A stretch of DNA of 32,805 bases, from the IMG/VR virus record IMGVR_UViG_3300012952_000063, positions 1-32,805 of that record; one strand, 5' to 3'. How positions within the stretch are numbered: the stretch's first letter is position 1; each line of letters begins with the position of its first letter. Made by a program: the position numbers and the translations under genes. Under the pieces are notes generated by a model that did no database searches, had not been told where the DNA came from, and worked only from the letters and a program-made list of their open reading frames with translations. Positions 221 to 32,805 of this stretch are shown here, piece after piece. This DNA comes from a virus. Its lineage: Duplodnaviria > Caudoviricetes.

Positions 221-931
221 CTATTTAGGGATTTTTAAGTTTCCATCTGGTAAAACCTCAAATTCCATAACATCGTTAAAACTTGTTTGAATATTAGGTG
301 AACCATTCAATCTACCTTCATTTAAATATTGAAACTCATGATTAAATGCAATTGATATTCTATCAAAGTCTACTTCATTAGGTTCTACATAATGTAACAT
401 TGCAGATGGAAATAGAAATAAATCACCTTCTACTGGGTCAACTACAAAATTATCTGCATCTCTTCTTGATGCATGTGTAAAATCTTGCATGTATTTTGCC
501 TGACCACTTATAAATTGCAAACAACCAGACCCCCTAGTTTCTTTCGGAACTTGTAAATAAAATACACCACTATACCAACAGCCAGGATGAGAATGTACAT
601 TATTATATGAATTTTTATAATTTATGTTTACCCAATAATTACCATGGTGTAATTTAAAATCTTTACTTTCATCTCCTGCGTAAAATGGAAATACTTCTTT
701 ATTAAAAACTTTTTCAATACCATTAATCATAGATTGGAAAATTGGTCTCTCATTTACACCATCATTAGACTGCCAACCACTACCATTATTAGAACGACTT
801 CTACCAATTGGGTCATTTTTTCTCATAGTATAACATTCTTTTTGCATTGCATGAAGTTGTTCATCAGAAATATAACCTTCTTTAATTAAATTAACTCTAA
901 ATACATTCCATGAAAACATTGGTATAAACAT
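221..931 (-). CDS. Putative 2OG-Fe(II) oxygenase, TIGR02466/2OG-FeII_Oxy_5-like
   Basis: Motifs SNxxGWQS, WVNIN, NNVHSHPGCWYSGVFY (HxH), LFLFPSAMLHYVEPN (distal His) and RISIAFN. The start overlaps the upstream stop (TAATG at 929-933). Confidence 0.85.
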   Translation of the reverse strand: MFIPMFSWNVFRVNLIKEGYISDEQLHAMQKECYTMRKNDPIGRSRSNNGSGWQSNDGVNERPIFQSMINGIEKVFNKEVFPFYAGDESKDFKLHHGNYWVNINYKNSYNNVHSHPGCWYSGVFYLQVPKETRGSGCLQFISGQAKYMQDFTHASRRDADNFVVDPVEGDLFLFPSAMLHYVEPNEVDFDRISIAFNHEFQYLNEGRLNGSPNIQTSFNDVMEFEVLPDGNLKIPK

Positions 932-1776
932 TATTTAAACTCCTTTTTCGATGCCCAGTTCTTTCTATAAACTTGTTTATATTCATTTCTATCGTCTAGT
1001 GGTTCTCTGTCATTCATTTTTTTTAATTCACCTTGGAATTCTTTTCTAAATTTTCCATGGAGTTCTTCTTTAGAAAGAAACTCAACTGTATGTTTCCAAG
1101 GATATCTAACAAAAGGTACAATCTGTACCAGTGGTGTACCTTTGGGTATTATAAAAGAATTATCAACTTTAGGATAGAATATCAACATATTATTTGTTGT
1201 CAATTGATTAAAACCATCGGTATCTATAACTCCTTGCCATGTTTGAAAGTATGGATTATCAAACAAAAATGGGTCAAGATAATAACAAGAAGTTCCTTTT
1301 GGTGTTTCAATTAAGAAATCCATTTTGAATTTAAATGCCATTTTATCATCCCAACTACTACCTTTAACTTGTACAGCAGGATGACCACCATGTTTTTGTG
1401 AACCTTCTAACCACTCATTCTCTGCAAGAATAAGACCTTTACTATGTGCAATTAATTGTTCTGGTGTTTCAGATTCTTTTATTTTTTTTAATTCTTCTGG
1501 TGTTACATCATCTTTTAATGGAAGAGAAATACTTATTGGTTCATTTCCATCATGTCCTATAAAAACAAATACTGAATGACGATTTCTAATTAGATATCCC
1601 ATAGATAACCAATCATGCATAGCTGGACATTTTTTTATTGTTTCAGATGATTTGTTTAACCCATTAGGTAACATAGTTGGTAATTTCTTATACCACTCTG
1701 GTTTTACTTGTCTAGCTGGAACTGGTTCAAATAAACGATTTTCACTGTCTATTACACACTGAAACTTTATTTCCAT
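931..1776 (-). CDS. DUF6065-like phage protein (dUTPase-like beta-clip region), function unknown
   Basis: Motifs TIKKCPAMHDWLSMGYLI, TPKGTSCYY, GVIDTD and IPKGTPLVQIVPF are typical of this family, which often sits next to phage 2OG oxygenases. The ORF track starts at 1800; ATG at 1776 (MEIKF), just after the upstream stop, is more likely. Confidence 0.6.
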   Translation of the reverse strand: MEIKFQCVIDSENRLFEPVPARQVKPEWYKKLPTMLPNGLNKSSETIKKCPAMHDWLSMGYLIRNRHSVFVFIGHDGNEPISISLPLKDDVTPEELKKIKESETPEQLIAHSKGLILAENEWLEGSQKHGGHPAVQVKGSSWDDKMAFKFKMDFLIETPKGTSCYYLDPFLFDNPYFQTWQGVIDTDGFNQLTTNNMLIFYPKVDNSFIIPKGTPLVQIVPFVRYPWKHTVEFLSKEELHGKFRKEFQGELKKMNDREPLDDRNEYKQVYRKNWASKKEFK

Positions 1777-1781
1777 TTCTT

Positions 1782-1970
1782 TTATCGGGCATTCGTCCAT
1801 AATCTTTCGTGTATATAATATAGTAATAGTTTCAAGAAAAAATCAAATGTCATTATTGCACCAGCAACTTCAACTGACCCTGTTAGTGCATATCCTATTA
1901 ATCCTGTAGTAACTGTTGCTATTATTCTCCATGAAAATGCTTTTACAATTGACTTACTGTGTGAATCCAA
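1782..1970 (-). CDS. DUF2061 family small membrane protein
   Basis: S-x-x-KAFSWRIIAT...two hydrophobic helices...LYYIHERLW signature. TTG start overlaps the end of the APS kinase gene. Confidence 0.85.
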   Translation of the reverse strand: MDSHSKSIVKAFSWRIIATVTTGLIGYALTGSVEVAGAIMTFDFFLKLLLYYIHERLWTNAR

Positions 1971-2742
1971 GTTGTCTCCTAATTTCTGTTGCAGAAATTA
2001 ATTCAGTCTCTTTGTCAAAAGATTCCTGTTCTATTTTATACCCTACATCTCTACCATAAGTTATGTTGACAACATTTGGTACTTTTTGTATAATATAGTG
2101 TACATTTTCTTCGTATCCTTCTCCAAGTAGATACATTTTAATATTTTGTTTAACTGTTTTAAAATCAAATGGATTCTTTGCAGTATTTTCCATTGCACGA
2201 ATCATAATAACCACTTGTCCTGTTTTATCATAACATCGTTTGAATAATGCAAAATGACCATCATGAAATGGTTGAAATCTACCTAACATTTGTGTAGTAG
2301 GTTTAGTTTCGTCAAACCTTCTATTCTCTGCAAGTATTTCTCTTGCAATAACCTCTGAATGTAGTTCACCATTCTGGTCTTCGACCAGATAGTCTACTTC
2401 GTTTTTGAGAGGTCTTTGAAATGCTTTATTGGTATCTGCATATCTACCTTTCTCTATTGTATCCATAAAGACTATATAATCTGGATTTAAAATTTGTCGA
2501 CCTTGAGTAAATGGACATACAAAATCCATAATTGCATATGGTTTTTCGGATTCTCTACATAAGTCTTTCATCCTATGTACCTGTCTCATTCTACCTTCTT
2601 CTGAGAAATCCCAATCGTTGTGTTGGGTTCGGATTGCATCTGCATTGAAATGGTCTGCATCTAAATGTTCAAGTAGACAATTAGAAATATAAGTTTTTCC
2701 ACTGCCAGGCAATCCCATAATTAAAATTGTTTTTGTTTTCAT
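1954..2742 (-). CDS. cysC: Adenylylsulfate (APS) kinase-like domain fused to a C-terminal HxGH nucleotidyltransferase domain
   Basis: N-terminal P-loop ILIMGLPGSGKT, NADAIR, DFSEEGRMRQ and DFVCP. C-terminal MLGRFQPFHDGH (2254-2289) and ISATEIR. The ORF track starts at 2766; ATG at 2742 (MKTKTIL) avoids overlap with the upstream gene. Confidence 0.8.
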   Translation of the reverse strand: MKTKTILIMGLPGSGKTYISNCLLEHLDADHFNADAIRTQHNDWDFSEEGRMRQVHRMKDLCRESEKPYAIMDFVCPFTQGRQILNPDYIVFMDTIEKGRYADTNKAFQRPLKNEVDYLVEDQNGELHSEVIAREILAENRRFDETKPTTQMLGRFQPFHDGHFALFKRCYDKTGQVVIMIRAMENTAKNPFDFKTVKQNIKMYLLGEGYEENVHYIIQKVPNVVNITYGRDVGYKIEQESFDKETELISATEIRRQLGFTQ

Positions 2743-2753
2743 AATAGTATATA

Positions 2754-3575
2754 TTATGCATCCCAAAGGGTTGCTTTATCTCCTCTTACGACCATACTTG
2801 TTCTAAATGGGAATCCATTTTCTTTAGTATATTCTACATCTGGGCCAGGATGTCTATGTGTAATTGCACCATTCATAATGACTAATCGATTTGGTTTATA
2901 TTTTACTCTACCAATTTCATAATCCTCTGCATTTTCTGGAATACCATTATATGAATGGTCATGATATTCACCATTGTACATTATTAAGTCACCACCCCAA
3001 TTATCTTCCCATCTTTCTTGGTCATAGTATAGGAATGTTAAATTGTTTAGACATGAATCATCTAATCCTGTGTCTTCATGAATAGTTCCATCTTGTCCAA
3101 TAGTTTGTCCATTAAATCCACAATATTGAAAATAATTCCAATCAAATTTAAAATCTTGTCTTAGTTTATGTATAAACCAATCTATCATAGGTTCTCTATA
3201 ACCTACATTATTAACACGAAATACATCCTTCTTCCATTCTGATTGTTTCATCCATCTTTTATTTTTTCTATGATATGACTCATAATGGTCTTGTATTGCT
3301 GTATTGTTGTGCCAACTATTTTTTTCCTCACCTACATTATGATATATTGATTCACCCCAATACAAATGTTGCATTTCATTATTACGAATTACTCTATTAC
3401 TTCTACCCCAGTTAACAGATGAATTTCTCCAATTTCTCCAACTCCACCAAATTGGAGGCGTAAGATAATTATCAAATACCCATACTTTTTGGAAAGGTAA
3501 TTTATCAATAGGTTTTGGTTTTTGCAGATATTCTATATTGAGAGGATGCATTAACCATTCGTAATGCATAGACAC
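2754..3575 (-). CDS. 2OG-Fe(II) oxygenase, prolyl-4-hydroxylase-like (2OG-FeII_Oxy_3 type)
   Basis: NGQT..QDGTIHED (HxD), LYY...WEDNWGGDL, YKPNRLVIMNGAITH (distal His) and FRTS (2OG-binding Arg). GTG start overlaps the upstream TAG. Confidence 0.85.
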   Translation of the reverse strand: MSMHYEWLMHPLNIEYLQKPKPIDKLPFQKVWVFDNYLTPPIWWSWRNWRNSSVNWGRSNRVIRNNEMQHLYWGESIYHNVGEEKNSWHNNTAIQDHYESYHRKNKRWMKQSEWKKDVFRVNNVGYREPMIDWFIHKLRQDFKFDWNYFQYCGFNGQTIGQDGTIHEDTGLDDSCLNNLTFLYYDQERWEDNWGGDLIMYNGEYHDHSYNGIPENAEDYEIGRVKYKPNRLVIMNGAITHRHPGPDVEYTKENGFPFRTSMVVRGDKATLWDA

Positions 3576-4213
3576 TATACAGCCCTCTTGTCCTCACCTA
3601 AAGAATCTTGTCCACCATTAACATCGAAAGTATCTGATTTAGTTTCAAATCTATCATCTGACCAATGAGTTTCAGTAAACTCATCCTGTGGTGGTGGTTC
3701 TGGTAATTGATTTAGATAAGTATCAAAGTCTTGCAAATCTCCATCAAGAGTTGCATTTAATTCTTCACATATTCTATATGCAGTACCAACTAAAAAATCA
3801 TTCCAGTCTAAGAATCTTCTTGCAATTTGTCTTCTAGGGTCATTAGAACCTTCTCTAGATGCAATAAGAATTTCAGTCATATTATCAAATTTGAAAAAAC
3901 CTAATCTTTCAAATCCAATTTCTCTTCGATTTTTTACTGACTCTTGAATATCATCTGAATATTGTTTTGTCATTGTGAGTTCCAAAGGTGGTTCACAAAG
4001 TTTAATATATTCTTCAATTTCTGCAATATTTTCCTCAGATAACTTTTCTACTTTTCGATTAAGTTCGTATTCGTAAGAATCATCATATGGTATATAAAAC
4101 ATAAAGTCATAATCAAAACCAAAAGAAGGTTTATCTGCTTTATCATAATTCCAACGAAGTCCTCTTTCGTTAGTTATATGTAAAACATTGTCGTGGTCAT
4201 ATACTAATAACAT
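3575..4213 (-). CDS. Acidic hypothetical protein, probable tail-fibre assembly chaperone
   Basis: GGAG RBS. The C-terminal half (FDNMTEILIAS..SNDP..QIARRFLDWND....YRICEEL...YLNQLP) resembles the helical phage tail-assembly chaperone pattern. It lies immediately downstream of the fibre genes. Confidence 0.45.
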   Translation of the reverse strand: MLLVYDHDNVLHITNERGLRWNYDKADKPSFGFDYDFMFYIPYDDSYEYELNRKVEKLSEENIAEIEEYIKLCEPPLELTMTKQYSDDIQESVKNRREIGFERLGFFKFDNMTEILIASREGSNDPRRQIARRFLDWNDFLVGTAYRICEELNATLDGDLQDFDTYLNQLPEPPPQDEFTETHWSDDRFETKSDTFDVNGGQDSLGEDKRAV

Positions 4214-4250
4214 AATAAAATCTCCATAATATAAAGTATATAGTCTTGGT

Positions 4251-5936
4251 CTAAGGCCAAGGTTTATTCAAATCACCATCCCATGTAGATACTGGTCTAG
4301 TCGAAGGTCGAGTAGATGGTCTAGTACTTGGTCTAGTTGAAGGTCTCGTTGCTGGACGAGTTTGTGTCACCTCATAAGAAGTTGGTCTACTAATAGTCTG
4401 TTCAAATGATGAAGGTCTACTAATTGTTTGTTCAAAACTTGTAGGTCTCGGAGTTTGGAAATTAGCAGGTCTATTAATAGTTTGTTCATAAGAAGTAGGT
4501 CTACTATTTTGTAACTGAGCAGGTCTATTAATAGTCTGTTCATAAGAAGTAGGTCTATTAATAGTTTGTTCATAAGAAGTAGGTCTAGGTATTGTCACTT
4601 CATAAGAAGTTGGTCTAGGTATCGTTTGTTCATAACTTGTAGGTCTACTACCTTGAGTCTGATAATACTGAGGTCTACCTATAGTCTGTTCATAAGAAGT
4701 AGGTCTAGGTATTGTCTGTTGATAACTAGTAGGTCTAGGTATTGTCACTTCATAAGAAGTTGGTCTAGGTTGCTGATAGTTAGTCGGTCTAGGTATCGTC
4801 TGCTGATAGTTATAACTAGGTGGTCTATAGTTTTGTATCTGTGTATTATAACTAGGTGGTCTATAGTTTTGTATCTGTGTATTATAACTAGTAGGTCTAG
4901 GTATCGTCTGTTGATAGTTATAACTTGGTGGTCTATAGTTTTGTATCTGATAATTTTGAGGGCCAGGGTTGAAAGGCCCATCTGGTTGATAGATTGGATT
5001 AAATGATGGACTTGGTACTAATGGGTTAAATGGTGTTAACTGTGCATTAGGTGATTGAACTTGAGTTGCAGCTGCACCAAATTTTGGATTAGCTGCAGTA
5101 TAAACTTGCACTTGAAAAGCTCCTGGCCTAAATCCTGTAGTTTGGAAATATTGTGGTCTATAACCTGTTGCTTGTCCTTGATAATTAGCAGGTCTATTAA
5201 TAGTTCCTTGAGTTTGAAAATATTGTGGTCTATAAGCAGTTCCTTGAGTTTGAAAATATTGTGGTCTATAACCTGTTGCTTGTCCTTGATAATTAGCAGG
5301 TCTAGAAGCTTGTAACTGGCCAGGTCTAGCTATCGTTTGTTCATACTGATTAGGTCTGTTAATTGTAACTTGATAATTAGCAGGTCTATTAATCGTTTGT
5401 TCATAGTTAGCAGGTCTAAAATTCTGTATTTGAAAGTTTGCTGGTCTGTTAATAGTTACTTCATAACTATTTGGTCTGTTAATAGTTTGTTCATATTGGT
5501 TTGGTCTGTTAATAGTAACCTCATAAGATGAAGGTCTATTAATAGTCACCTCATAACTTGTAGGACGAGGTGTCTGGAAATTTGCTGGTCTATTAATTGT
5601 AACTTCATACGATGTAGGTCTACTATTCTGCAATTGAGCAGGTCTGTTAATAGTTTGTTCGTATGTTGTAGGTCTATTAATAGTTACTTCATAACTATTT
5701 GGTCTATTAATAGTAACCTCATAGGGTTGTTGATAAGACTGTTGAAATGGTTGTTGAAATGGTTGTTGAAATGTCTGTTGAAAAGGTTGTTGCACCTGTA
5801 TAGTTCCAGTCTGGAATTCCCATCCAGTTGGAGTCTTTCTTTTTACATCAACTACTTTTTTCCAGCCAGATGGAGTCTTGACTCTCCATCCATTGGTGTC
5901 ATTCCATCCTGCTGGAGTTTTTACTTTTGAACTCAT
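4251..5936 (-). CDS. 561-aa Gln/Thr/Pro/Arg/Tyr-rich mirror-repeat protein, probable distal fibre or appendage
   Basis: GAGG RBS. N-terminal 3x KTPxGW, 40 units of 8-12 aa ending in RP, tetrapeptide repeats at both ends and a 55-aa core. Sits directly after the 1349-aa fibre gene. Confidence 0.85.
   Translation of the reverse strand: MSSKVKTPAGWNDTNGWRVKTPSGWKKVVDVKRKTPTGWEFQTGTIQVQQPFQQTFQQPFQQPFQQSYQQPYEVTINRPNSYEVTINRPTTYEQTINRPAQLQNSRPTSYEVTINRPANFQTPRPTSYEVTINRPSSYEVTINRPNQYEQTINRPNSYEVTINRPANFQIQNFRPANYEQTINRPANYQVTINRPNQYEQTIARPGQLQASRPANYQGQATGYRPQYFQTQGTAYRPQYFQTQGTINRPANYQGQATGYRPQYFQTTGFRPGAFQVQVYTAANPKFGAAATQVQSPNAQLTPFNPLVPSPSFNPIYQPDGPFNPGPQNYQIQNYRPPSYNYQQTIPRPTSYNTQIQNYRPPSYNTQIQNYRPPSYNYQQTIPRPTNYQQPRPTSYEVTIPRPTSYQQTIPRPTSYEQTIGRPQYYQTQGSRPTSYEQTIPRPTSYEVTIPRPTSYEQTINRPTSYEQTINRPAQLQNSRPTSYEQTINRPANFQTPRPTSFEQTISRPSSFEQTISRPTSYEVTQTRPATRPSTRPSTRPSTRPSTRPVSTWDGDLNKPWP
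4293..5789 (-). repeat. Coding tandem-repeat array (12/24/30/36-bp units) in two arms: 5124-5789 and 4293-4958
   Basis: Recurrent ggtct(a/g) (Arg-Pro) every 24-36 bp on the + strand. Exact 51-bp duplicate at 5146-5196 and 5254-5304. Confidence 0.95.
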
Positions 5937-5968
5937 TAATCAATTTCCTCATTCATTATATATTGTTA

Positions 5969-8900
5969 CTATGAGTATGTTATCCAGATATCACCTACTG
6001 CTCCATCCGAACCACCTGGCGCAGAAGAATGTATGAATACATTTCTCATTGCCTTAGCACTTGCACCAATTGTTGTATAACTTGTTGTTGCAGCTCCTGT
6101 GAAAGCAGATGTTCCACTTACTGCTAAACTACTTAATGTACCAACACTTGTAATATTAGTTTGAGCTGCAGTTTGAATTGTACCTGTTACATTACCAACT
6201 AAGTTACCAGTGATATTACCACTTGAATTAATTGATGATGCCGCAACATTTGCAGCTACAAAATCTGCAGCTGTTAATGATAAATCACCAGTTGAAGAAC
6301 CTGTTGCAGTTGTTGTTGCAACTACAAATTTATCTGCACTTTCATCCCAACCTATAAATCCATTGTTACCTGTTGAACCTCTTTCTAGTATAAGACCCAA
6401 GTCATTACTGTTTGAACCAGTATTACCAGAACCAAGTTCTATTAATGCATCTTCAATAGTAGTGTTTGTTGAACTGTTAGTTACTGTTGAACCATTAACT
6501 GTTAGGTTACCAGAAATTACAACATTACCACTTGCAGTAACATCTGTTGCAGCTATATCTGCAAAAGTTACATCACTAGTTGTTGCAACATCCTGTCCAA
6601 TACTAATTGCAGGCTCCCATCCTTCACCAGCACTACCACTTACAGTAACACCAGTTCCACCAGTAACATTGTCTACATAGTTTCCAGAAGTTCCAGAACC
6701 TAATGCAACTGTTCCTACTACTAAGTCTATTGTATTATCTGCATCTTGATATGTTGCAGTAATACCTGTCTCAGTATTTGAACTAAACATTGCACCTACT
6801 GTGTCTGATACTGCCTCTGCAAAGTTTGATACTCCACTAGAAGTAATACTAATATCTACATTAGATGCACTTGTTACTCTACCTTTTGAATCTACTGCTA
6901 CTTGAGCAACACTATCTGCATCACCATAAGTTGCAGCTGATACACCAGAGTTTGCAAGTGTAATTGGTAATGCAACATTACCTGTTCCATCAAATGATTG
7001 TGATGAGTCTGTAGTTGCATCCCCTGTTACTGTAAAGTTTCTTGAAGTTGCAAGTGCAGTTGCAGTTGCAGCGTTACCAGTTGTACTTCCAGAAGAACCA
7101 GATACATTACCTGTAACATTTGCAACCAATGTACCTACTGTATATCCTGTTGCAGTTGTATTAACTGTTGTTGAAGGTACTGTTTGTGTATCTGCAAATA
7201 ATCTAAATGTATTATCTGTAGATGCATCAAAGAATAAACCTGCGTATTTTGTAGTACTTGACTCTACATACTTACCATAGAAACCAAAGTCTGTTGCATT
7301 TCCAGAGTTTGCATTTGTTAATCCTGTAAAGTTTGCATCGGATACTGTTGAACCTGTTTGTGTTGTTGTACCACTAACTACCAAGTTACCTGTAACTGTT
7401 AAGTCATTTGAAATTGTTACATCACTTGGTAATCCATATGTAATTGTTCCAGAATTTTCTACAACATCTACTTCGTTTGATGTTCCAGCAAAAGTTAAAG
7501 TACCACCTAATGATACTGGACTTGTATTTGAACCATCGGAAACTGTTATACTTGAATTTGAAAGTTTACTGTTTGCAATTGAACCAGATAACATTGCATT
7601 GTCTACTGAACCAGCTGCAATTGTTAATGCAATACTAGTATTACCTAGGTCTGTCATTGTACCAGAACCAGTCACATCTCCTGTTAGAGATATAGTTGGG
7701 TCATTAACATTAAAGTCTAAAGTACCATCTGAGTCATCATAGGTGACTGAGATACCATTTTCTGTGTTAGACGATACCATTCCACCTACAACATCTTGTA
7801 CTCTTTCTGTAGTATGGTAAAGGTTACTTGACCCTTCGGATAAGTTGTCTGTGTTAAATCCAGAAATACTTGTTACTAAATCGATAGTTCCATCACTATC
7901 TTCATAAGTTGCAGTGATACCTGTTTCAGTGTTTGAACTGAACATTGCTCCTACAGTATCTTGAACTACTTCTGTAAGGTCTATGTTTGCAGAACCATCG
8001 AATGAAACACCATGAATTGTTCTTGCAGTTTCTAATGCAGTTGCAGTTGCAGCGTTACCTGTTGTATCTTGGTTAAGTGTTCCAACTGTAAAATCTAAAG
8101 TACCATCTGAATCATCATATGCAACTGTAATACCACTTTCGGTATTAGATGTTACCATTGCACCTACGATATCTTCTACAGACTCAGTAAGGTCTGTAAT
8201 AGTTGATGCAGTTGTACTTACTACTAAATCGATTGTACCATCTGAATCTTGATATGTTGCACCAACACCTGTTTCAGTATTACCAGAGAACATTGCACCA
8301 ACAATGTCTTGTACTCTTTCTGCATTTACTGTTACATCACCAGAAGATACAGTAAAGTCTGTTCCATCAAATGATGCAATACCTTTGTTTGTTTCTGTTG
8401 CATCTTCTACAGATATAGTTGCAGTTGAACCTTCACTCGGTGTATGAGATACATCAATACCTTCACCAGCAGATATATCTAATAGATAATTACCAGTTGT
8501 ATCTGTACCTAATGCAACTGAGTCAGCTGCAATAGTTGATGCAATTGATACATTACCAGAACCATCAAATGAAACTGAACCAGTAACATCTCCTGTTAAA
8601 GAGATTGTTCTTGCATTCATTAATTGAGAAGCTGTACTTGCATTACCTTCTAGGTCTGCCAACAATGTTGATTGTGAATGACCAGTTCCAGAAGTATCTA
8701 CTGTAGTTGTAGGTTCTGATTGGTTACCATGGAATAATCTAAATTTACTTGATTCAGATGCATCCCATAATAGTCCTGCGTATTTTGTAGTTGAACCTTC
8801 AACATACTGACCATACAAACCAAAGTCTGTTGCATTTGCAGCGTTGTCTTTTGCAACTTTAACTGAACCATCTGTAACTTGTAATGTAGAAGATGATACT

Positions 8901-23013: not shown

Positions 23014-24450
23014 CTACATTTCTATAATTAGTTTTATATCCTCAATCTGGTCGGCTGCCCTTGCAACTGCACCACGATTCTCTAAGTAAACAATATCACC
23101 AGAGTTTCTTTGAACTTCTGGATATGCTGAACTTACACCACCACTTGCAAGAATAGTTCCTTTTTGTGTACTTCCTACAAAAACACCATTACTATTTGCA
23201 AATGAATTAAAGTTTCCAACTGAATCTACACTTGGTAAGTAATAAACATATCTGTTAGTTGAATCTACAGATACTACTTTACCTGTTGCAGTTCCAGAAG
23301 TAATTGAAGATGCATTTGCAATTGTGTCATCTACTGCTGGCATTGTTGCACCAGTAGCTAATGTAATTCTATTTAATGCACTTAATGTTGTTGCACTTGA
23401 AAGTGTGTTACCACCAGCATTAGTTGGGTTTACAATTAAACCTATTTGTCTAAAATCGTTATCTGTTGGGAAGTCACCAGAACCCTCTGCATATTCTAAT
23501 CGAGAGTTAACGATGACATAGTTTCCACCTAGTTCTTCTACTGCATCTGAACCATGTCCATTTTTAGGACTGACTATTACATCAAAAGATGCACCTGTTC
23601 CAGATGAACTTGTTGCAGTTCTTAATAAACTATTATCAATACTTACAACTGAGTATCCAGAACCTACTGCATTTACTGTTACTGCTGTGATAGCACCAGA
23701 TGATACTGTTACTTGTAGTTGTCCACTTGTACCATCTCCACTTACTGCAACATTATATGTTCCATTTGCACCATAACTAGAACCACCTGCTGTGACTCTT
23801 GCATGTTCAATAGTACCATCTGTTGCACCATTCTCTACATCCCATTGTGCAGAGTTATCATCTGCAGCTGCAGTTCCTAGTCCACCAACTTCTCCTTCAA
23901 CTCCTGCTTTTGCACCAATAGTTTTTACTGGTATAAAATCAGATGTTACAAATTTAATAACATCTGATGCAGAGATAGAATACATAAATTTCCATTTGTA
24001 TCCATCTGCTGTTGTTAAGATATTAGTTGAAGTACCTGTAGGCATTACTGTTGAATTTGCACCATTGTTATTTGAGATTACTTTATATACATGGTAATCA
24101 CTGGTGACAACATAGAATGTTGATGCCCATAGTGTTGATGCACCACTGTTTGCAGTGTTGCTTGAAGTATAGTTATGACGATACTCGTCATATACTGTGC
24201 CTGATGTCCAGTCTCTTCGGATAATGGCATGACTCACATCTGTAGCGGACACTTTTTTAAGTGCAGTCATATTTGCATATGCATCATACTCATCGTTTAG
24301 AGAGTCTACTGGAGTCGGCGGGTTTGAATCATCTGTCCACGATAAAGGTCTTCCAATAAACATATACATTGCATTACCAGACTCGGTTGCACTTTGTTTG
24401 AATTCCTTTGCATTGTGGAGACGAAATTTTTCGGTAATTATCGCTGCCAT
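23014..24450 (-). CDS. gp8: Baseplate wedge subunit gp8
   Basis: MAAIITEKFRL.NA, YMFIGRP..W, RRDWTSGTVYD.Y, FYVVTSDY.VYKVISN, DGYKWKFMY, PKNGHG and C-terminal GDIVYLENR....RA.DQIEDIKLIIE. Synteny after gp7. Confidence 0.9.
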   Translation of the reverse strand: MAAIITEKFRLHNAKEFKQSATESGNAMYMFIGRPLSWTDDSNPPTPVDSLNDEYDAYANMTALKKVSATDVSHAIIRRDWTSGTVYDEYRHNYTSSNTANSGASTLWASTFYVVTSDYHVYKVISNNNGANSTVMPTGTSTNILTTADGYKWKFMYSISASDVIKFVTSDFIPVKTIGAKAGVEGEVGGLGTAAADDNSAQWDVENGATDGTIEHARVTAGGSSYGANGTYNVAVSGDGTSGQLQVTVSSGAITAVTVNAVGSGYSVVSIDNSLLRTATSSSGTGASFDVIVSPKNGHGSDAVEELGGNYVIVNSRLEYAEGSGDFPTDNDFRQIGLIVNPTNAGGNTLSSATTLSALNRITLATGATMPAVDDTIANASSITSGTATGKVVSVDSTNRYVYYLPSVDSVGNFNSFANSNGVFVGSTQKGTILASGGVSSAYPEVQRNSGDIVYLENRGAVARAADQIEDIKLIIEM

Positions 24451-24490
24451 TTTATCCTTTCCTCTAAGTTAAAAATAATTTCTATTAAAG

Positions 24491-24508
24491 TATTTATATG
24501 TATTTATA
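24491..24508 (-). promoter_or_regulatory. Two tandem T4-type late promoters TATAAATA (24491-24498 and 24501-24508)
   Basis: Two exact consensus copies 10 bp apart upstream of gp8; one overlaps the gp7 stop codon. Confidence 0.85.
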
Positions 24509-27500
24509 CACCAGATTGTACAGAAGCTGGGTAATTTAATATCATTGTTCTACCTTTATGTTCCTGTAAGTCTGAAATACTCTGATTTGGATATAAAGTA
24601 CTTATATCACTAATTTTAACACCTTCATATGGTGCTTCTACAAGTAATCTACCTGCTTCACTCTCCATGAGAATATTATCACCATCTTCCTGTGTTATTC
24701 TTTCCTCAAACTTAAGTGTTTGAGAGAAACCTATTCTTGCAAGGTCACCTAGTGTTGGGCCAAGTCTTTCGACTGGTTCACCAAATGATATTGCATTTTC
24801 TTGGATTATTCTACTACCATCTTCGTATACAAGTGTATCTTGTATTTCTGATTTCATAAAGTATGAACCCAAGTTATATGACCTTTCAGTCACAAATCTT
24901 TCATGTTCTTCTATGTCTGTTGCATCTTCTAATGCAAGTCTACTACCATCTTCTAATGTTAGTTCTTCTGTTGGGTCTACAGTCCATTTATCACCAACAT
25001 AATAACGACCATCTGTAGTAGTAACAGAATTATATCTTTCTGGTTCTGGTTCTGCCATCAAGAAACCATGGTCTAATTCTTCTATTAGATATGAACCATC
25101 CTCTGTTATAATAAATTCTTCATCTACATTTGCAACTGAGTTAATAATTTTTGCATCGGATGGAACTTTGTGTCTTTCTCTATTTGATGCAAGGTTATTA
25201 ATTATAGAACCACCAGTTGCACTTTTAATTGTTTCACCCCAATCTAATCCACCCACATATGCAATAGTAGTTGCATTTGCACTACCTCTTAATCCTTGTT
25301 GATTTAAATCTTCTTTACTATCTGCATTTAAGAATGGCCCTGTCTCTTTATCAGTAGATGATGTATCTATCTTTCCTGTATTATGCCAACTTGTATTTCT
25401 TGTTGATACTGGTTGTGAACTTGCAAAGGTTTGTAGTATACTAATATTCTTTCTTTGTTGTCTGTTTGCACCTTCATAGAATTCAGATGCTTTAAAGAAT
25501 GCATTAGGGTCAAGTGTGCCTGGCGGGTCAAAATCATCATTAGGGTCAACTACTTGGTTTTGAGGTGGTGTAACTACTGGAGAGTTATGTCCAATATCAA
25601 CCTTAACTATATTTTCATGTACATGATGTTCTTCTACTGTTATTGCAGTAAAGTGTGTTGTACCACCAGATTCATTTGTAATTCCTTCTGTTGTAAAACT
25701 TCCTACATTTGCACCGAATGAATCTGCACCTTCCCAGACAATAATAAATTTATTGACTGTATCGTGTTCCATAACACGACCTAACTTACCAGAAGTTGCA
25801 CCTTTAACAGTTTGTCCTATTGACAATGCATTATCTAAAGTGTTATAATAGATTCTAGTATGTACATAATGAGGATACATTTCTAATTCTTTGACAACCT
25901 CATGACCATGTGCAGTTACATTTGCACGAATAATCCTATCATACAATCCAACATCTGACTCTGTAATATCTTGACCAACAATAAATGCCTGTCCAGAACC
26001 TTGGTCTGTTTTAGTACTTGCATCTATTACTGTATTAATAATTGCTTTCTTACCAGAAGATTCTCCAATAAGACCATGTATAAATTCTATGTCTGTATCT
26101 GACTGGTCTGTTTTCCAATCACCATGTGTCTCTTTAAACAAACCGAAGACACCTGCTCTTCCACCTTCGGAAGTTAATTGTTTCATTGCAGTATGGTCTG
26201 GTCTAATGGTATCAATAATTATAAATGTTGGGTCTGCAACTAAGTCACCATTTTCATCTCTTTCTCTATCTACAACTCTACCTGTAATTGTTGCAATGTC
26301 TCCACTTTGTGTTTTAAATAAATTTTGTGATACTGTTTCACCTATTGAGAAATCTCTTGCACCACTTGGTGACATATCTGTTGTACTTAAATTTAATCTT
26401 AGTCTATCATCTGCAAGGAATCTTTCGGTTACTACTACACCAGAGTTATCTTCGTAAATTATGTTTTGTTCTTCTGCATAGAATACATCTTCTTCTCCAG
26501 ATGCAACTGTCCCTTCTTCTAGAACAACTTTAGCTGGGTCAATCTTAGAACCAATATAAAGTGTTGGTACAAATGACCTTGTAATTCTATCACCATCAAA
26601 TCCATCATCGTTTGAACCTGTTCTGTATCCTTCTGCACTTCCATCTACACGATTAACAATTGCAACCTCTCCAAAGAAAATCGTACCTGCTGGATTTAAT
26701 AATTGTTGTACAACTGAACGATAGTTATTAATACTCTGACCAACTTTAATTACATATGAAAAGTCTTGATAGAATAATGAATCTTGTATTCTTTGTGATG
26801 TTACAGATGGGAAACCAATATCACTTGTATAGTTACCATCTACTCTACTAATTGAATTATTTTTTGCACCAACTGTTGCTGGGTTACCTTCTAATATCTG
26901 GAATGTTATTCCATCGGATGCAGTTACAGTTTCATTCTTTTTAAACATTCCCTGTATGGGTTCGATAGATATAAGATTTTTATCACCATTTACAATTTTT
27001 ACTGTTCCTGTTGCACTACTAAAGTCACCTGTGATTGTAGTATCGACTACTGGGATACCAGATGCTCTACCATAAATAAAGTGATGTCTAAAGTCTGGGA
27101 TACCAGATGATTTATCAAAATGATTTCCTTCTTCTATAACTCTTAGTTGTCCTACTGTACCAATGTTATTACCATAAGGTAAAAGTTTTGCACCCACACC
27201 TCTAGTAAAACTACTTTGTTTAATTACTGCAATACCACCAGACTGTTGTCCTGTAATCGTATTACCTACTGTAAATGTGGTAGTATCTGTTGTACCTTGT
27301 AGTTTAGCAATGATAAGTTTGTTTGCACCTTTGTCGTGGTCAACTAATCTACCTGTTGTAGTTCCAGATGTAACTGTTTCTCCAATTGTAAATAAATCAA
27401 CAAGACCTTCATCTTCATAGAATACTTCACCACCCACAAAAGCTTCTGGAAGTTTTTGATATCCTATACCACTGGTTAACATTCTAACTCTTGATATTGA

Positions 27501-29447
27501 ACCTGTTGGATTTGCACCAGATTGGTCAAAGAGTAATTTATTTTCTCCTGTTGATTGTAATCCATCTTCCAGAATTAAAGTTGTTTCTTCTGGTTGTGCA
27601 AACACCTCGATAATAGTACCAACATTACCAACATAGTTTGCATGACTACTTTGTGCATAAGTCCCTATGAATACAATTGATGAACCATTGATACCAATGT
27701 TTGCAGAACCCCTTACTTCTTCAAATACTGAAAATGGAATATTACCACCCTGTGCAGTTATGTTTTGTGTTACATCTGCTCTCTTAACTCTTACCACAAC
27801 ATTTTCTGGGTCATATACTAAGAGGTTATTATGTTTATCTCTTCCAGAGAATGTAGTCTGACCACTAGTTGCAACAAATTCAAATGCACCAAATGTAGTT
27901 CCACTCTCTAGAAAAATATCTCCAGATGTAGATGTAACTTCACCTAATGCAAGTGTCCCACCAGAATCGGTGTTATCAAATACAACTAAGTCACCATCTT
28001 CATATCCTGTACCTCTCTGTGCTGGGTCTACTAAAACTTTTTCTACTTTACCATCTTCAATATTACCTACAAGTGTTTTTGCAAATTGACCAACACCAAG
28101 TTCTGATTGTGGTAAATTAACTGTAACATTTTCTGATATAGAATATAATGCACCCTGTGATGCTTCTTCTGATTTCATTGCACCACCAATCACTGCTTCT
28201 GTTTGTGGTGTATTAACTGTTTCTCTTACCATGATAGGTTTTTTACCATGGACTTCGTTTAAACTATTATCTGTTTGTGTTCCTTCTTCTAAAAGAATTA
28301 AGTTGTTTACATCTAATGCAATACTGTCTGTTGCAGTTTCCAACATGATACCTTCTGTATCATCTGATTCAGATGCAAAGAATCCTGTTCCTGTTCCAGA
28401 CTCAAGTCTGAACATAACATTACCATTGTCTTTATCAAGGTCTTCAACAATACCTCTAACAATTGCATTATGGAATTTGTCTGGTGTTTCTCTTGATTGT
28501 AATTCTACTCTATCACCAATATCTAATGAACCTATGAAAGGCTCCATGATTACCAATCGGTAAACATTATCTCCTTCTCCAGATGTTACTCTTGTAATTG
28601 TATCTGCTTGTATTTCAGTAACAATCTGTCCCTCTTTCGTTTTAACTATTTTTCCTTTTGCATATTCAAGGAGATTTTTTTCTGAGAATAAATGTACTAC
28701 TGTTGATTCTGTCCATTTAGAGTTTGAGGGTTTTACGATGTTATCTCTTGGATAACTGATTTCTATATCTTCATTATATAATACTCTGAATAAGAAATCA
28801 TATGATGCCATACTACCTTTTGCAAGATAGATATCATTAATATGTTTTGCAAGTAATCTTTTATCTGCAATTATTTTTGCATCGATTGAAGGCATGAAAT
28901 CTTTTCGGAAATATTCCAAAAAGTCACCTGTGGTCTTATCGACATCTGCATAATCCAATAGATTATTTGCAGCGAACAATGCACCACCTTCAAAAGAATT
29001 TGCTTTTGCAGTATACCCACTGTTTTGACCAACAATGGTTTCACCTACTAGGAATTGTGATTCAGTGAACATCTCTATATAGAGTTTGTTAGATGTATTT
29101 CCTATAACATCAATTCTTGCAGTTGCACCAGAAGTTGACCCAACTACATATTCACCAATCTCCCATGAACCTGTTTGTGCTTGTCCAAGGTTATTTTGTT
29201 CATACAAGAATTTTGCTTTATCTAAAGGTGATGGAGAGAAGGTTGCAGTTTCTTGTATGACTGCACCTTCTCCATCTTCTAACCCAATAGTCTCTAGTTC
29301 TGTACCAGAGTTATAGATAAGAATACCTTTCTCAAGAAAGTCAAAGTATGCAGACAAAAACTTTTTGAGTCCTTGTCCTTCCTCATTGATATACTCTGGT
29401 AAGAGTTCATCAAGTTGGTCTACTATCCTGTCATTGAGAATTGGCAT
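24504..29447 (-). CDS. gp7: Baseplate wedge initiator gp7-like protein (1647 aa)
   Basis: LPEYI......FL.AYFDFLE, LLDYADVDKT, IY.AKGS..SY.FLFRVLY, and RIQDSLFYQDFSYVIK......YR..V..LL.PAG..FFGEV. Position between gp6 and gp8. Confidence 0.85.
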   Translation of the reverse strand: MPILNDRIVDQLDELLPEYINEEGQGLKKFLSAYFDFLEKGILIYNSGTELETIGLEDGEGAVIQETATFSPSPLDKAKFLYEQNNLGQAQTGSWEIGEYVVGSTSGATARIDVIGNTSNKLYIEMFTESQFLVGETIVGQNSGYTAKANSFEGGALFAANNLLDYADVDKTTGDFLEYFRKDFMPSIDAKIIADKRLLAKHINDIYLAKGSMASYDFLFRVLYNEDIEISYPRDNIVKPSNSKWTESTVVHLFSEKNLLEYAKGKIVKTKEGQIVTEIQADTITRVTSGEGDNVYRLVIMEPFIGSLDIGDRVELQSRETPDKFHNAIVRGIVEDLDKDNGNVMFRLESGTGTGFFASESDDTEGIMLETATDSIALDVNNLILLEEGTQTDNSLNEVHGKKPIMVRETVNTPQTEAVIGGAMKSEEASQGALYSISENVTVNLPQSELGVGQFAKTLVGNIEDGKVEKVLVDPAQRGTGYEDGDLVVFDNTDSGGTLALGEVTSTSGDIFLESGTTFGAFEFVATSGQTTFSGRDKHNNLLVYDPENVVVRVKRADVTQNITAQGGNIPFSVFEEVRGSANIGINGSSIVFIGTYAQSSHANYVGNVGTIIEVFAQPEETTLILEDGLQSTGENKLLFDQSGANPTGSISRVRMLTSGIGYQKLPEAFVGGEVFYEDEGLVDLFTIGETVTSGTTTGRLVDHDKGANKLIIAKLQGTTDTTTFTVGNTITGQQSGGIAVIKQSSFTRGVGAKLLPYGNNIGTVGQLRVIEEGNHFDKSSGIPDFRHHFIYGRASGIPVVDTTITGDFSSATGTVKIVNGDKNLISIEPIQGMFKKNETVTASDGITFQILEGNPATVGAKNNSISRVDGNYTSDIGFPSVTSQRIQDSLFYQDFSYVIKVGQSINNYRSVVQQLLNPAGTIFFGEVAIVNRVDGSAEGYRTGSNDDGFDGDRITRSFVPTLYIGSKIDPAKVVLEEGTVASGEEDVFYAEEQNIIYEDNSGVVVTERFLADDRLRLNLSTTDMSPSGARDFSIGETVSQNLFKTQSGDIATITGRVVDRERDENGDLVADPTFIIIDTIRPDHTAMKQLTSEGGRAGVFGLFKETHGDWKTDQSDTDIEFIHGLIGESSGKKAIINTVIDASTKTDQGSGQAFIVGQDITESDVGLYDRIIRANVTAHGHEVVKELEMYPHYVHTRIYYNTLDNALSIGQTVKGATSGKLGRVMEHDTVNKFIIVWEGADSFGANVGSFTTEGITNESGGTTHFTAITVEEHHVHENIVKVDIGHNSPVVTPPQNQVVDPNDDFDPPGTLDPNAFFKASEFYEGANRQQRKNISILQTFASSQPVSTRNTSWHNTGKIDTSSTDKETGPFLNADSKEDLNQQGLRGSANATTIAYVGGLDWGETIKSATGGSIINNLASNRERHKVPSDAKIINSVANVDEEFIITEDGSYLIEELDHGFLMAEPEPERYNSVTTTDGRYYVGDKWTVDPTEELTLEDGSRLALEDATDIEEHERFVTERSYNLGSYFMKSEIQDTLVYEDGSRIIQENAISFGEPVERLGPTLGDLARIGFSQTLKFEERITQEDGDNILMESEAGRLLVEAPYEGVKISDISTLYPNQSISDLQEHKGRTMILNYPASVQSGV

Positions 29448-29457
29448 TTAATTATCC

Positions 29458-29925
29458 TTATGCAACTGAGAAAGAATGTCCACCTATAACAACCCAACCA
29501 TATGTTGAACCAGTGTATAACATTACAACTGAATCACCAGCACTGTCAAGTGTTACTTTAGTACCACCTGTGAAAGTACCAGAAGGTGTAATTTCTGGAG
29601 AACTACCACCATCACTTACTAACACAAAGTACTTAACTTGTCCTGTAGAACCATTTCCTAATGTTAGGACATCTGTTCCACTTGAACTTGATGTTAAGTA
29701 GTGTGCCCATTTACCTGCTGTTGCAGTTGCAGCGTTCGAACTGAACGATACAGCTTCTGCTGATTGAGCAAATCCCAGATAATCTGGAAGGTTATTTAAA
29801 ACATTACTGACTGAAACCTTTTTGTTTACTGGAGTACCAGAAGGGTCGTCAATAACATGAAGCAAGTCTTCACCTGCGATGCCTGTCCCTAAGTCGGACA
29901 ATGCTGTTACTTTTTTATCTGCCAT
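29458..29925 (-). CDS. Small virion structural protein (155 aa)
   Basis: MADKKVTAL.......[21 protein letters not shown]-terminal fibre-type motif; beta-rich C-terminus ending GWVVIG. GAGG RBS. Confidence 0.75.
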
Positions 29926-29954
29926 TTTTAGTTCCTCTCTAATTTAGCATTATT

Positions 29955-29973
29955 AAAACCCACACCATGTGGG
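29955..29973 (-). terminator. Putative intrinsic terminator after gp6
   Basis: The - strand reads CCCACA-TGG-TGTGGG followed by TTTT (6-bp GC-rich stem, short U-tract). Confidence 0.5.
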
Positions 29974-30006
29974 AATATTACTTCATGCATACACATGAAT
30001 CATAGT

Positions 30007-31878
30007 TTAGGAGTAACTAGAAGAGGATGTATATCCAACCCCAGCACTCGTATCACCAGATGCGATGGAGTCTGTTGCTCCAGTCACACTAATCAATGAT
30101 GTGTTGATGTCTAGAAGATTACTTCTATATGCAACACTGTCATTTGAATTCGGAATCACTGTAAAGTGAATTGTATCATCGGTGTTAGATGTCTCTAATA
30201 TATTAACACCATTGACTGTTATTTTACCATTTGTATAGTCTACTGTTCCTGCTTGACTATCTGCATAAACTCTTTCTGAACCACTTAAAGAATATCGTCT
30301 TAGATTTCCATTTCCATCATCATCAAAAAAGAAAGTATCGGTGAATCCAGATACTTTAAATCCAGTGGTTGTTATAATACCACCACCAAGTTTGTTATGT
30401 CCTAGGTGAGGATTATAAAACTTATTTCCATCACCGAACTCTATATCATAACCTTTAGATTGTCCTAAAGTAGGAGATATAGTTTTTCTAAGTTTGACAG
30501 TTGTTATGTTCGAGAGAATCGAAGATTCTGCATTGTCTATGTCTGTCGCTAGAACTGAATGCCTAAAAATACTATCAAACCCACTTAGATAGGTACTGTC
30601 ATGTGTAATGATTGCAGCCCTTACTAGTGTTTCTAATTCAGATGCAGTCTTAGTAGTTGCTCTAGGATTGAACTTAAAGTTACAAGTCACTAGGATTTCG
30701 ATTACATCAGCATCTACTATTTCTGGTCTGACTGTTAACATATTTAGTCTTCTCATCTTATCTCTTAACAAAGTTTTTTCGGATGAAGTTAATTTATTTA
30801 CATTCTGTGAAGGTTTAATTGCAATGAATATCTTTCCATATTGTGGTGGATTATTATCTTCACCACCCCAGACAGAAATAGAATCTGCGCCAGGGTATAG
30901 AGTTTGCAGTTTAGACTTATAATCGTCTACTGTTACCAACCTGTTTTGTGAGGTGTAAAACTTTGAAGCTGCAAATCTAATTGATTCAATATCTTCTTTA
31001 TCTTTACCACCAGATGATGCATTCTTAGTAATGAGAGTTACATCGGAGTTACCACCAATGGAATCTGACATTGTAAATATATTTGCACCTTCTGTATGTA
31101 TTGAATTTGTTACTAGATATGATATAGTAATAGTATCACCATCTAAAGGTTCTGCACTAATAACACCATCACCAAAGTATACTTCAAATAAACCTTGGTC
31201 GTTTTCTTGTACATACCATACTTTACTGTCTTTATCTACACCACTAATATCTTCTGACTTTGCCCATGCAGATGAACCACCACCTGTTGATTGTATTGTA
31301 ACTGTAATACTTGAAGTATCAACTAACTCTTCTGATAATGCAAACCTTTGATTTTGTATCTGACCATTATATGCAAAGATATCAGAGTTCATAGTTCCTT
31401 GATATAACTTAAGGTTTTCAAATTTAAATATACCATCTAGAGGTGAAATAGTTTTTGATTCTAAAAGAACATATGGAAATACAGAACCATCATAGGATGT
31501 TTTAAATTTATGTCCTCTATTAAGAGTTAATGATGTTGGAATTTCTCCACCAATTAAAGGACTGTTTACTTGTAAATCTATTGTTGCCATAGAGGCAGTT
31601 GCACTTGTAGGAGTATATCCTATTTCTTTTGCACGAGAGACTACATTCTTTCTTATTTGTGCAGTGTCTAAGAACAATTCAGATGCAACCATGTTTGCAT
31701 TAAAAGCTGATACATGGGAACTGTATGCAAGAAGGTCAATTAATAAACTAATATTACTACCTTCGAAGTTGTAGTCTTTAAGAGTCGATTGACCCTTAAG
31801 ATATTCTTTTAGATTGGATGCAATATCATCGAAATCTAAATCAGTGATATTGACTTGTGAACTTTTTACTGTTGCCAT
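30007..31878 (-). CDS. gp6: Baseplate wedge subunit gp6
   Basis: LDFDDI..NLKEYLK.Q...KDYNFEGS....LIDLLAY, E.FLDTAQIR.NVVS.AK.IGY.P.S, FEVYFGDG, SQNRLVT.DDY and VWGGEDN.PPQYGKIFI. Confidence 0.95.
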   Translation of the reverse strand: MATVKSSQVNITDLDFDDIASNLKEYLKGQSTLKDYNFEGSNISLLIDLLAYSSHVSAFNANMVASELFLDTAQIRKNVVSRAKEIGYTPTSATASMATIDLQVNSPLIGGEIPTSLTLNRGHKFKTSYDGSVFPYVLLESKTISPLDGIFKFENLKLYQGTMNSDIFAYNGQIQNQRFALSEELVDTSSITVTIQSTGGGSSAWAKSEDISGVDKDSKVWYVQENDQGLFEVYFGDGVISAEPLDGDTITISYLVTNSIHTEGANIFTMSDSIGGNSDVTLITKNASSGGKDKEDIESIRFAASKFYTSQNRLVTVDDYKSKLQTLYPGADSISVWGGEDNNPPQYGKIFIAIKPSQNVNKLTSSEKTLLRDKMRRLNMLTVRPEIVDADVIEILVTCNFKFNPRATTKTASELETLVRAAIITHDSTYLSGFDSIFRHSVLATDIDNAESSILSNITTVKLRKTISPTLGQSKGYDIEFGDGNKFYNPHLGHNKLGGGIITTTGFKVSGFTDTFFFDDDGNGNLRRYSLSGSERVYADSQAGTVDYTNGKITVNGVNILETSNTDDTIHFTVIPNSNDSVAYRSNLLDINTSLISVTGATDSIASGDTSAGVGYTSSSSYS

Positions 31879-31879
31879 T

Positions 31880-32293
31880 TTATCTTACTCTCTGTAATAT
31901 TACTTCTAATTCTTGAGGTTCTCTACTACCTATCACACCATAATGTATATTAACATTCATAGTATTTGGTTGTGACTGATTTAAATATATTTGGTCAATC
32001 TTTACTCTAGGTTCTAACATTTCTAGTGCTTCTGATATTTGATTTCTTATTTCCATTCTTGTTATATCATCTGCAAGTTCAAATAGGAGTCCCCTAAGAT
32101 TTGCACCAAAGTTTGGTTTAAAAGGTCTTTCATAATCATTAGTCAACATAATATTTCTGACTGACCTTTTGACTGCCTCTTTATCTTGTTTTAAAACTAA
32201 ATCACCAGAAGAAGGATGTGGTGTGATATTTAAATCAATATCAGTATAGAAATTTTTTCTTGCAGTAATTTTGTTTTTACTTTGAACACTCAT
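31880..32293 (-). CDS. gp25: Baseplate wedge subunit gp25
   Basis: YTDIDL....HP..GD.....D.EAVKRSVRNI.LT..YERPF.P.FG.NL..LLFE...EPRV and C-terminal LQRVR. Confidence 0.95.
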   Translation of the reverse strand: MSVQSKNKITARKNFYTDIDLNITPHPSSGDLVLKQDKEAVKRSVRNIMLTNDYERPFKPNFGANLRGLLFELADDITRMEIRNQISEALEMLEPRVKIDQIYLNQSQPNTMNVNIHYGVIGSREPQELEVILQRVR

Positions 32294-32298
32294 AATAG

Positions 32299-32306
32299 TA
32301 TTTATG
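32299..32306 (-). promoter_or_regulatory. Possible variant late promoter CATAAATA
   Basis: One mismatch from consensus, immediately upstream of gp25 and overlapping the upstream stop codon. Confidence 0.4.
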
Positions 32307-32805
32307 CACCTTCAAGTGCTAGTTCTACAACATCTATTTGTTTTGGAAAACCAAGGAACTCTAAGAACGAACATAGAGTAAATGGTATCGGTATACCAGA
32401 TGGTATAAGCATCCCAAGATATTTTGCAAGTTTTGCTAGAACTGCTTCAAGTAACATTTGAGGTAGATTTTTTATGAAGTTATCAATTCTGTCTCTTAAC
32501 TTATCTATATTCCAGTTTGGAAAATCTACTTTTTTAAACTCACCTATTTCTTCTAAATCAATTAAGTCACCTAATGTCTCTGGTAAATCGAGTCCTACTA
32601 ATTCTGCCTGACCAGCTATTTCTGATACTACTGGTAAAGGGTATGCAAGTAATTCTGTTTGAAAATCTTTACCTGCTTCTTTAAATTGTTTTTTTAATCC
32701 CATAAGAAATGCATCGGTATCAAAATCTAGTTGACCACCATTTACAACCATGCCTGGCAAACTTATTAGTAAGTCTAGGTAATCTGTGAATGGACTTCCA
32801 GCTGC
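32302..32805 (-). CDS. Hypothetical protein, 5'-truncated by the window edge
   Basis: The frame stays open from the TTG at 32760 to base 32805 (AAGSPFTDYLDLLISLPGM...), so the real start lies outside the window. No family recognised. Confidence 0.75.
   Translation of the reverse strand, partial: AAGSPFTDYLDLLISLPGMVVNGGQLDFDTDAFLMGLKKQFKEAGKDFQTELLAYPLPVVSEIAGQAELVGLDLPETLGDLIDLEEIGEFKKVDFPNWNIDKLRDRIDNFIKNLPQMLLEAVLAKLAKYLGMLIPSGIPIPFTLCSFLEFLGFPKQIDVVELALEGA

Follow-up and report, generated by a model that had tools for sequence, protein, structure and literature searches.

Introduction

The closest described relatives of the system considered here are phage-encoded pairs of a C5-methyltransferase (C5-MT) and a TET enzyme. 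The system was studied in a 32,805-nucleotide stretch of a Caudoviricetes virus (IMG/VR record IMGVR_UViG_3300012952_000063, positions 1 to 32,805), hereafter called the window, and consists of a codon footprint in which every CCNGG site imposed by a Pro-Gly pair is written so that it overlaps a GpC. According to the available text of Burke 2021 (PMC8256090), C5-MT/TET pairs expressed in E. coli methylate and then hydroxylate GpC[C/T] or GpC[C/T/G], GpCA is not a target of clade I enzymes, which methylate GpC[C/T/G], and anti-restriction is one of several roles offered for these systems. The enzymes were assayed there on E. coli DNA and in vitro, and no footprint on a phage genome is reported in that text.

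The post-replicative glycosyltransferase (GT) hypermodification pathways of Pyle et al. (bioRxiv 10.1101/2023.12.21.572611) involve the same enzyme class with the same GpC limit. The available part of that preprint considers it unlikely that nucleases with other contexts are broadly blocked, and says that it is not known whether the natural substrate is DNA of the phage or of the host. T-even phages use glucosyl-hydroxymethylcytosine, another C5-modified cytosine that acts as a nuclease shield; all cytosine is replaced before replication there, whereas the mark considered here would be post-replicative and sparse (PMC8256090, available text). Therefore, such a mark would require a genome adapted to it.

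Phages avoid restriction sites, and overlapping methylation can block restriction. The window resembles the first case in that synonymously removable words (GATC, ACGT) go to zero, and the second in that an overlapping modified base would stop cutting. It differs from plain avoidance in being conditional, since protein-forced sites appear to be kept under an unrelated short-context mark. The enzymes are already known; literature searches, which left subscription journals mostly uncovered, returned no published account of this codon footprint, and the genome-level co-adaptation is apparently unpublished. We conclude that the footprint most probably comes from a phage C5-MT/TET pair that would modify GpC[C/T/G] on the phage's own DNA and so block host nucleases.

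Codon footprint at Pro-Gly sites

CCNGG occurs exactly 16 times in the window, always as CCWGG. The 22 main minus-strand open reading frames (ORFs), which served as the gene set for all codon counts in the window, contain 16 Pro-Gly pairs, one per site, so no CCWGG lies outside Pro-Gly. All 16 sites carry a flanking 5' G or 3' C. The glycine codon is GGC at 13 of them, and the remaining three are preceded by AGG, GCG and GCG. These coordinates and features had been given by the first-pass annotation, a model's reading of the letters alone, and recounting confirmed them. Its statement that GGC is otherwise rare also held, with 13/16 after Pro compared to 7/941 after other residues (Fisher p=5e-22); GGC is therefore not equally common elsewhere, and a search for unflanked CCWGG as a counterexample returned zero in the window.

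From the codon use of the window, 0.78 of the 16 sites are expected to be flanked, and the probability of all 16 is 1.6e-23. The other flank-making codons are rare as well (AGG, 28 of 366 Arg codons; GCG, 8 of 697 Ala codons). GGC is still used at three Pro-Gly sites already preceded by C. The gp6 site is written with GGC in all 40 aligned gp6 rows that retain Pro-Gly. Because CCGG is separately absent, CCWGG is not distinguishable from CCNGG as the target.

Gly-Pro sites and other depleted words

All six Gly-Pro pairs in the window are written with GGC or GGG (GGSCC), which brings the count of GGWCC to 0. About ten words besides the CCNGG and Gly-Pro sites are absent or kept only over a GpC. 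A motif was called shielded when a C of the motif lies within G-C-[C/G/T], and expectations were taken from synonymous shuffles of the 22 ORFs. For CCWGG, 16 shielded sites were observed against 2 expected, and 0 unshielded against 16. In the same order, the values were 6 vs 1 and 0 vs 8 for GGNCC, 3 vs 2 and 0 vs 16 for GGNNCC, 4 vs 4 and 0 vs 75 for CCTGA, 1 vs 1 and 0 vs 26 for CCTCC, 1 vs 1 and 0 vs 25 for CCTGCA, 0 vs 3 and 0 vs 65 for CCGT, and 0 vs 7 and 0 vs 22 for CTGAAG.

GATC (0 vs 99 expected) and ACGT (0 vs 48 expected) are unable to overlap a GpC. The control words CATG, TCGA, CTAG and ACCAC showed no purge in unshielded contexts. Short words are depleted in the window beyond codon and amino-acid composition, as in restriction-site avoidance.

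The enzyme pair in relatives

The record G001 (146 kb, 81% complete) is collinear with nearly the whole window at 75-83% DNA identity. It encodes a 421-aa C5-MT (PF00145; motifs PPC and ENV) adjoining a 334-aa Tet_JBP protein (PF12851; motif HxD). Both the catalytic Cys expected of a C5-MT and the HxD expected of a TET are thus present. An unassigned 329-aa ORF follows the pair, then P-loop kinase 3 (Ploopntkinase3, two genes downstream), and Hsp20 and Redoxin lie about 11 kb away. An adjacent pair, parallel and within five genes, is also present in G002, G005 and Methylophilales phage Melnitz; in G002 it is accompanied by an epimerase and a glucosyltransferase. The first-pass annotation had advised a search for C5-MT and TET/JBP genes, which drew nothing from the window and found them in G001, its closest long relative, and four more long records. 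No match to either gene was found in the shorter fragments G003 and G004.

These loci resemble the clade I/A (5mYOX) clusters of Burke in several respects: the adjacent parallel C5-MT and TET with a P-loop kinase in G001, G005 and Melnitz, the epimerase and glycosyltransferase in G002, and the Hsp20 and redoxin nearby. The neighbourhood typical of clade I/A (heat-shock protein, redoxin, P-loop kinase or glycosyltransferase) is thus present in relatives, with no glycosyltransferase among 141 G001 ORFs, and the clade I specificity, GpC[C/T/G], is also the one suggested by the codon footprint. The present evidence differs in being evolutionary, with the genes in relatives rather than in the window.

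Among 50,697 phage records, the G001 TET protein was matched over its length only by four Melnitz genomes. The Melnitz cluster (L094, 4010-8090) shares 55% (C5-MT), 53% (TET) and 54% (P-loop kinase homologue) identity with G001. Its TET homologue is gene 6, annotated as hypothetical, and the available text of the Melnitz paper (PMC9004378) mentions only a methylase. Of 72 loci fetched by TET, 67 hold a C5-MT, and four of the other five start at the TET gene. T-dioxygenases are placed among enzymes without an adjacent C5-MT in the accessible part of PMC13229309, which argues that the present TETs act on 5-methylcytosine.

The flanking rule follows the enzyme pair

The presence of the pair matched the codon pattern. 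CCNGG was flanked at 50/50 sites in G001, 45/45 in G002, 59/59 in G005 and 52/52 in Melnitz (counted from 100 of 141.5 kb), a total of 206/206, and GGWCC was 0 in each of the four. Five isolates without a TET match in the whole record were counted over 50 kb each and gave 14/52 (HTVC008M), 9/49 (Mosig), 9/71 (S-B43), 14/30 (P-HM2) and 21/109 (S-CRM01) flanked CCNGG, together 67/311; all five contain GGWCC. In G001, a GpC was touched by all 13 MCGK, all GGNNCC and 19 of 22 CCTGA sites.

At the locus level, 77 of 79 gp6 loci, many of which are near-copies, had no unflanked CCWGG (two of these had no site at all); the exceptions were L076 and L079. The 72 loci retrieved through TET contain 114 CCWGG, of which three lack a flank; these three lie within the initial 4 kb of L142. 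The rule was absent from a sister clade (L187-L207). Its long member G006 (124 kb) had 72 of 86 CCWGG unflanked and 14 flanked, and the unflanked sites occurred at the neutral rate (68 vs 67 expected in ORFs). G006 spans gp44-gp62 and hsp20-polB, the slots of the pair in G001, G002 and G005, and neither gene was found there.

At orthologous positions, Pro-Gly was flanked at 25/25 sites in G005 and unflanked at 22/25 in G006, and Gly-Pro was written GGS at 17/17 sites in G005 and GGW at 17/17 in G006. Between G001 and G002, GGC and GGG are exchanged at 5 of 18 Gly-Pro pairs, and the flank lies on the other side at 2 of 21 Pro-Gly pairs. Thus, the constraint persists through synonymous turnover.

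Context of the mark

The single-flanked CCWGG sites of the window (n=12) are all A/C/G-GCCWGG. T-GCCWGG is found at 0/12, although TGCC makes up 59 of the 83 other NGCC (P=3.4e-7). Among window CCWGG, T-GCC is confined to the four doubly flanked sites, while all four CCTGA sites use T-GCC. Single-flanked sites of relatives showed T-GCC at 1/35 (G001), 1/36 (G002) and 4/46 (G005). The CviJI-like context RGCY was ruled out because CGCC supplies the flank at 4 of the 12 single sites.

The shunning of T-GCC at single-flanked sites is consistent with a GpC[C/T/G] enzyme that places two marks on each site. With that specificity, a T-GCC flank would be marked once, a V-GCC flank twice, and GCCWGGC twice or more. 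Given this rule, two or more marks would fall on 16/16 window sites and 49/50 G001 sites. The first-pass annotation had proposed that the phage shields sites it cannot delete under a GpC-directed modification; the shielding is supported by the association with the pair in relatives and isolates, and a mark at GpC[C/T/G] on both strands describes the context better than one at any GpC. Alternatively, the exclusion of T-GCC may come from an enzyme for which T at minus one is unfavourable.

Interpretation and alternative explanations

The window's phage would carry a C5-MT/TET pair outside the sequenced fragment, with which it would methylate and then further modify its own DNA at the cytosines of GpC[C/T/G]. 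Words left unprotected would be selected against by host restriction. Where synonymous change permits, such words (GATC, ACGT) would have been erased, and protein-forced words (CCNGG from Pro-Gly, GGNCC from Gly-Pro) would have been moved under the mark by rare codons. In the window's lineage, a CCWGG site may have to be marked twice: V-GCC would allow this on the two strands of a single GpC, and GCCWGGC on the outer C of each strand. CCTGA may tolerate a single mark.

The selective agent is presumably a patchwork of host restriction enzymes. The sets of avoided words differ between lineages, as might be expected from host restriction repertoires, and this lineage-specific mix favours host systems over one phage nuclease. 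With somewhat more reserve, we consider it likely that sparse post-replicative GpC hypermodification is a broad anti-restriction shield and that a widespread lineage of marine myoviruses has adapted its synonymous positions to this mark. Relative to Pyle et al. (available text), the footprint argues for phage DNA as the substrate and for protection through co-adapted codons, and thereby offers comparative evidence on both of their doubts, the breadth of protection and the natural substrate. Since Melnitz is a cultured phage with a TET homologue, the question is directly testable. The footprint also gives a way, from sequence only, to flag modified phages and to predict the modification context from fragments without the enzyme gene. 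If the explanation is true, the specificity of the mark and the number of marks needed per host nuclease could be read in the same way.

Several observations weigh against this explanation. No methyltransferase or TET family was found among the 22 window ORFs, so the window has no parallel C5-MT and TET within five genes, and no closer long relative of the window covers the pair region. The window is a 32.8 kb structural fragment, so the phage need not lack a pair that is missing there. For G006, completeness is only 69%. A gp6 tree (FastTree, 139 rows; full-length gp6 from 149 of 158 loci, 10 with too few sites dropped) needs five state changes, and strong branches force just two; therefore, independent contrasts are few.

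Some loci also depart from a simple association. Every rule-breaking site of the TET locus L142 lies in 118-3972, possibly through a chimeric assembly or a recent recombination. Nine distant TET loci (L176-L184) keep GGWCC yet flank their CCNGG. L151 (9998-11549) has a TET and a P-loop kinase without an adjacent C5-MT, with about 0.9 kb upstream free of any ORF of 100 aa, and the flanking rule nonetheless holds in it. G007 (L267-L270), a 39% fragment in which no pair was found, is intermediate, with 20 of 41 CCWGG unflanked, 21 flanked and GGWCC present; this may perhaps reflect a decaying footprint or another enzyme. Melnitz accepts single T-GCC flanks (15/37, P=0.29).

Weaker GpC exceptions occur without the pair. 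P-HM2, which has neither gene, still uses GGC at 13 of 29 Pro-Gly pairs (p=5e-11). Pair-less G006 showed observed/expected values of 18/20 for shielded and 4/38 for unshielded CCGG, and of 27/31 and 11/50 for CTGAAG. Similar exceptions were seen for CCTCC in G006 and for CCGG in HTVC008M. In the window, shielded CTGAAG is missing along with the unshielded form. Finally, the loss of GCAGCA, the excess of TGCA and the loss of third-position GpC, which are detailed below, are none of them specific to the pair.

The near-universal CCWGG rule in pair-bearing phages keeps two other explanations in play. The GpC mark may be real and the nuclease guarded against phage-encoded, serving host-DNA degradation or rival exclusion and travelling with the pair. 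This would suit a rule that extends to distant pair-bearing loci and to Melnitz, and the neutral rate of unshielded CCWGG and GGNCC in pair-less G006, where no such pressure acts. We regard it as unlikely, because about ten words are hit in lineage-specific mixes. Moreover, a Pfam survey of 141 G001 ORFs (at least 70 aa, window-like region excluded) gave no restriction-type family; in this 81% complete record, with many ORFs unannotated, the only nuclease-like matches were a PDDEXK_1 exonuclease that G006 shares, a single HNH (none in G002) and a TnsA-like protein.

The words could instead be targets of a host Dcm-like methyltransferase, with the flanking GpC mark keeping off host methylation. 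C-containing palindromes are common C5-methyltransferase targets; the two strictest words are of this kind, and the flanking rule is linked to TET-bearing genomes. The harm would come from deamination or from wrong tailoring by the phage TET, and we give this little credence. In G001, the exception extends to the asymmetric words CTGAAG and CCTGA, GATC and ACGT are purged in pair-less G006 too, as plain restriction would do, and TET43 oxidises only Gp5mC (5mC, 5-methylcytosine) in vitro (PMC8256090, available text).

It is very improbable that no GpC mark exists and that longer degenerate words (e.g. WCCWGGW plus CCNNGG) or codon-pair bias merely leave G/C-flanked contexts: the partial exceptions without the pair (P-HM2 Pro-Gly; G006 CCGG and CTGAAG) would fit, but CCNNGG avoidance was ruled out by 18 unflanked sites of 22 in the window, GGC is used at the three sites preceded by C anyway, the flank tables of five records have entries only in the G row and the C column, and neither the association with the gene pair nor the avoidance of T-GCC would be accounted for.

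Coordinates and further sequence features

The sites behind the preferred C5-MT/TET explanation are listed in Table 1.

Table 1. Positions of Pro-Gly and Gly-Pro sites and of depleted words in the window.
Positions	Strand	Feature
581..586	-	Pro-Gly CCT GGC in 2OG-Fe(II) oxygenase ORF 221-931; single flank, AGCC context
2704..2710	-	TTG CCT GGC A in ORF 1954-2766; both sides flanked (TGCC/TGCC)
2842..2849	-	Pro-Gly-Pro CCT GGC CCA in ORF 2754-3575; one GGCC serves CCWGG and GGNCC
4960..4967	-	Pro-Gly-Pro CCT GGC CCT in repeat protein 4251-5936; one GGCC serves CCWGG and GGNCC
4975..4979	-	Gly-Pro GGG CCT (GGSCC)
5122..5127	-	AGG CCA GGA; Arg codon AGG supplies flank
5319..5324	-	Pro-Gly CCT GGC; GGCC context
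6015..6020	-	GCG CCA GGT in fibre ORF 5969-10018; Ala codon GCG supplies flank
10328..10332	-	Gly-Pro GGG CCA (GGSCC)
10843..10849	-	ACG CCA GGC A; both sides flanked
12258..12263	-	Pro-Gly CCA GGC; AGCC context
17600..17605	-	AAC CCT GGC in ORF 16592-23002; AGCC context
19079..19084	-	Pro-Gly CCT GGC G; CGCC context
22227..22232	-	GCG CCA GGT; Ala codon GCG supplies flank
22457..22462	-	Pro-Gly CCT GGC T; AGCC context
24757..24761	-	Gly-Pro GGC CCA (GGSCC)
25336..25340	-	Gly-Pro GGG CCA (GGSCC)
25518..25524	-	CCG CCA GGC A in baseplate wedge ORF 24504-29447; both sides flanked
30889..30894	-	TAC CCT GGC G in gp6
32752..32758	-	TTG CCA GGC A; both sides flanked (TGCC/TGCC)
1..32805	.	Zero in whole window: GATC, ACGT, CCGG, ACGG/CCGT, GGWCC, CTGAAG
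1..32805	.	Kept only over a GpC: CCTGA, CCTCC, CCTGCA, GGNNCC

The absence of GCA-GCA at Ala-Ala (0/43 in the window) was dropped as part of the GpC rule because GCAGCA is equally rare without the pair. Observed and expected counts were 1 vs 31 in the window, 1 vs 56 in G006, 1 vs 22 in Mosig and 40 vs 64 in Melnitz, and this purge, independent of the enzyme pair, probably concerns a separate target word. The excess of TGCA (876 of 1550 GC steps in the window) and the loss of third-position C after G (9/1002) fit a GpC[C/T/G] mark but overlap the controls, and neither was used as support; the G/A ratio was 0.30 in Melnitz, 0.27 in G006 and 0.28 in HTVC008M.

GCSGC, though it contains GpC, is nearly absent from the window (2), G001 (4), G002 (6) and G005 (0), counted on both strands. 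Melnitz, G006, HTVC008M and Mosig contain many copies, and P-HM2 none. A modification-dependent GCNGC nuclease of the BisI family is one possible cause.

Gene content of the window and G001

The window has 34.7% G+C. It belongs to a marine T4-like phage, whose baseplate, fibre and oxygenase genes lie here as one block on the minus strand. Pfam recognised gp25, gp6 and gp8, and an Rfam scan of the window gave zero matches. The best isolate matches of gp6 were Melnitz and the pelagimyophages Mosig and HTVC008M, at 39-43% identity. A gp6 search of genome contigs for a host returned three loci in two metagenome-assembled genomes (MAGs) and no credible host, and the result was not used. Two Synechococcus MAG contigs (L271, L272) carry a gp6 86-89% identical to that of the window and are probably co-binned phage DNA.

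A 561-aa Pro/Tyr/Gln-rich repeat protein with tandem arrays of 30-36 bp is encoded at 4251-5936 (minus strand). Directly downstream of it, a cassette at 221-3575 (minus strand) encodes 2OG-Fe(II) oxygenases, DUF2061 and a kinase/cytidylyltransferase-like fusion. G001 (L085-L088) also encodes curli CsgF/CsgG, a CHASE2 adenylate cyclase, ribosomal protein S21, an alternative oxidase, NifU and an aspartate decarboxylase.

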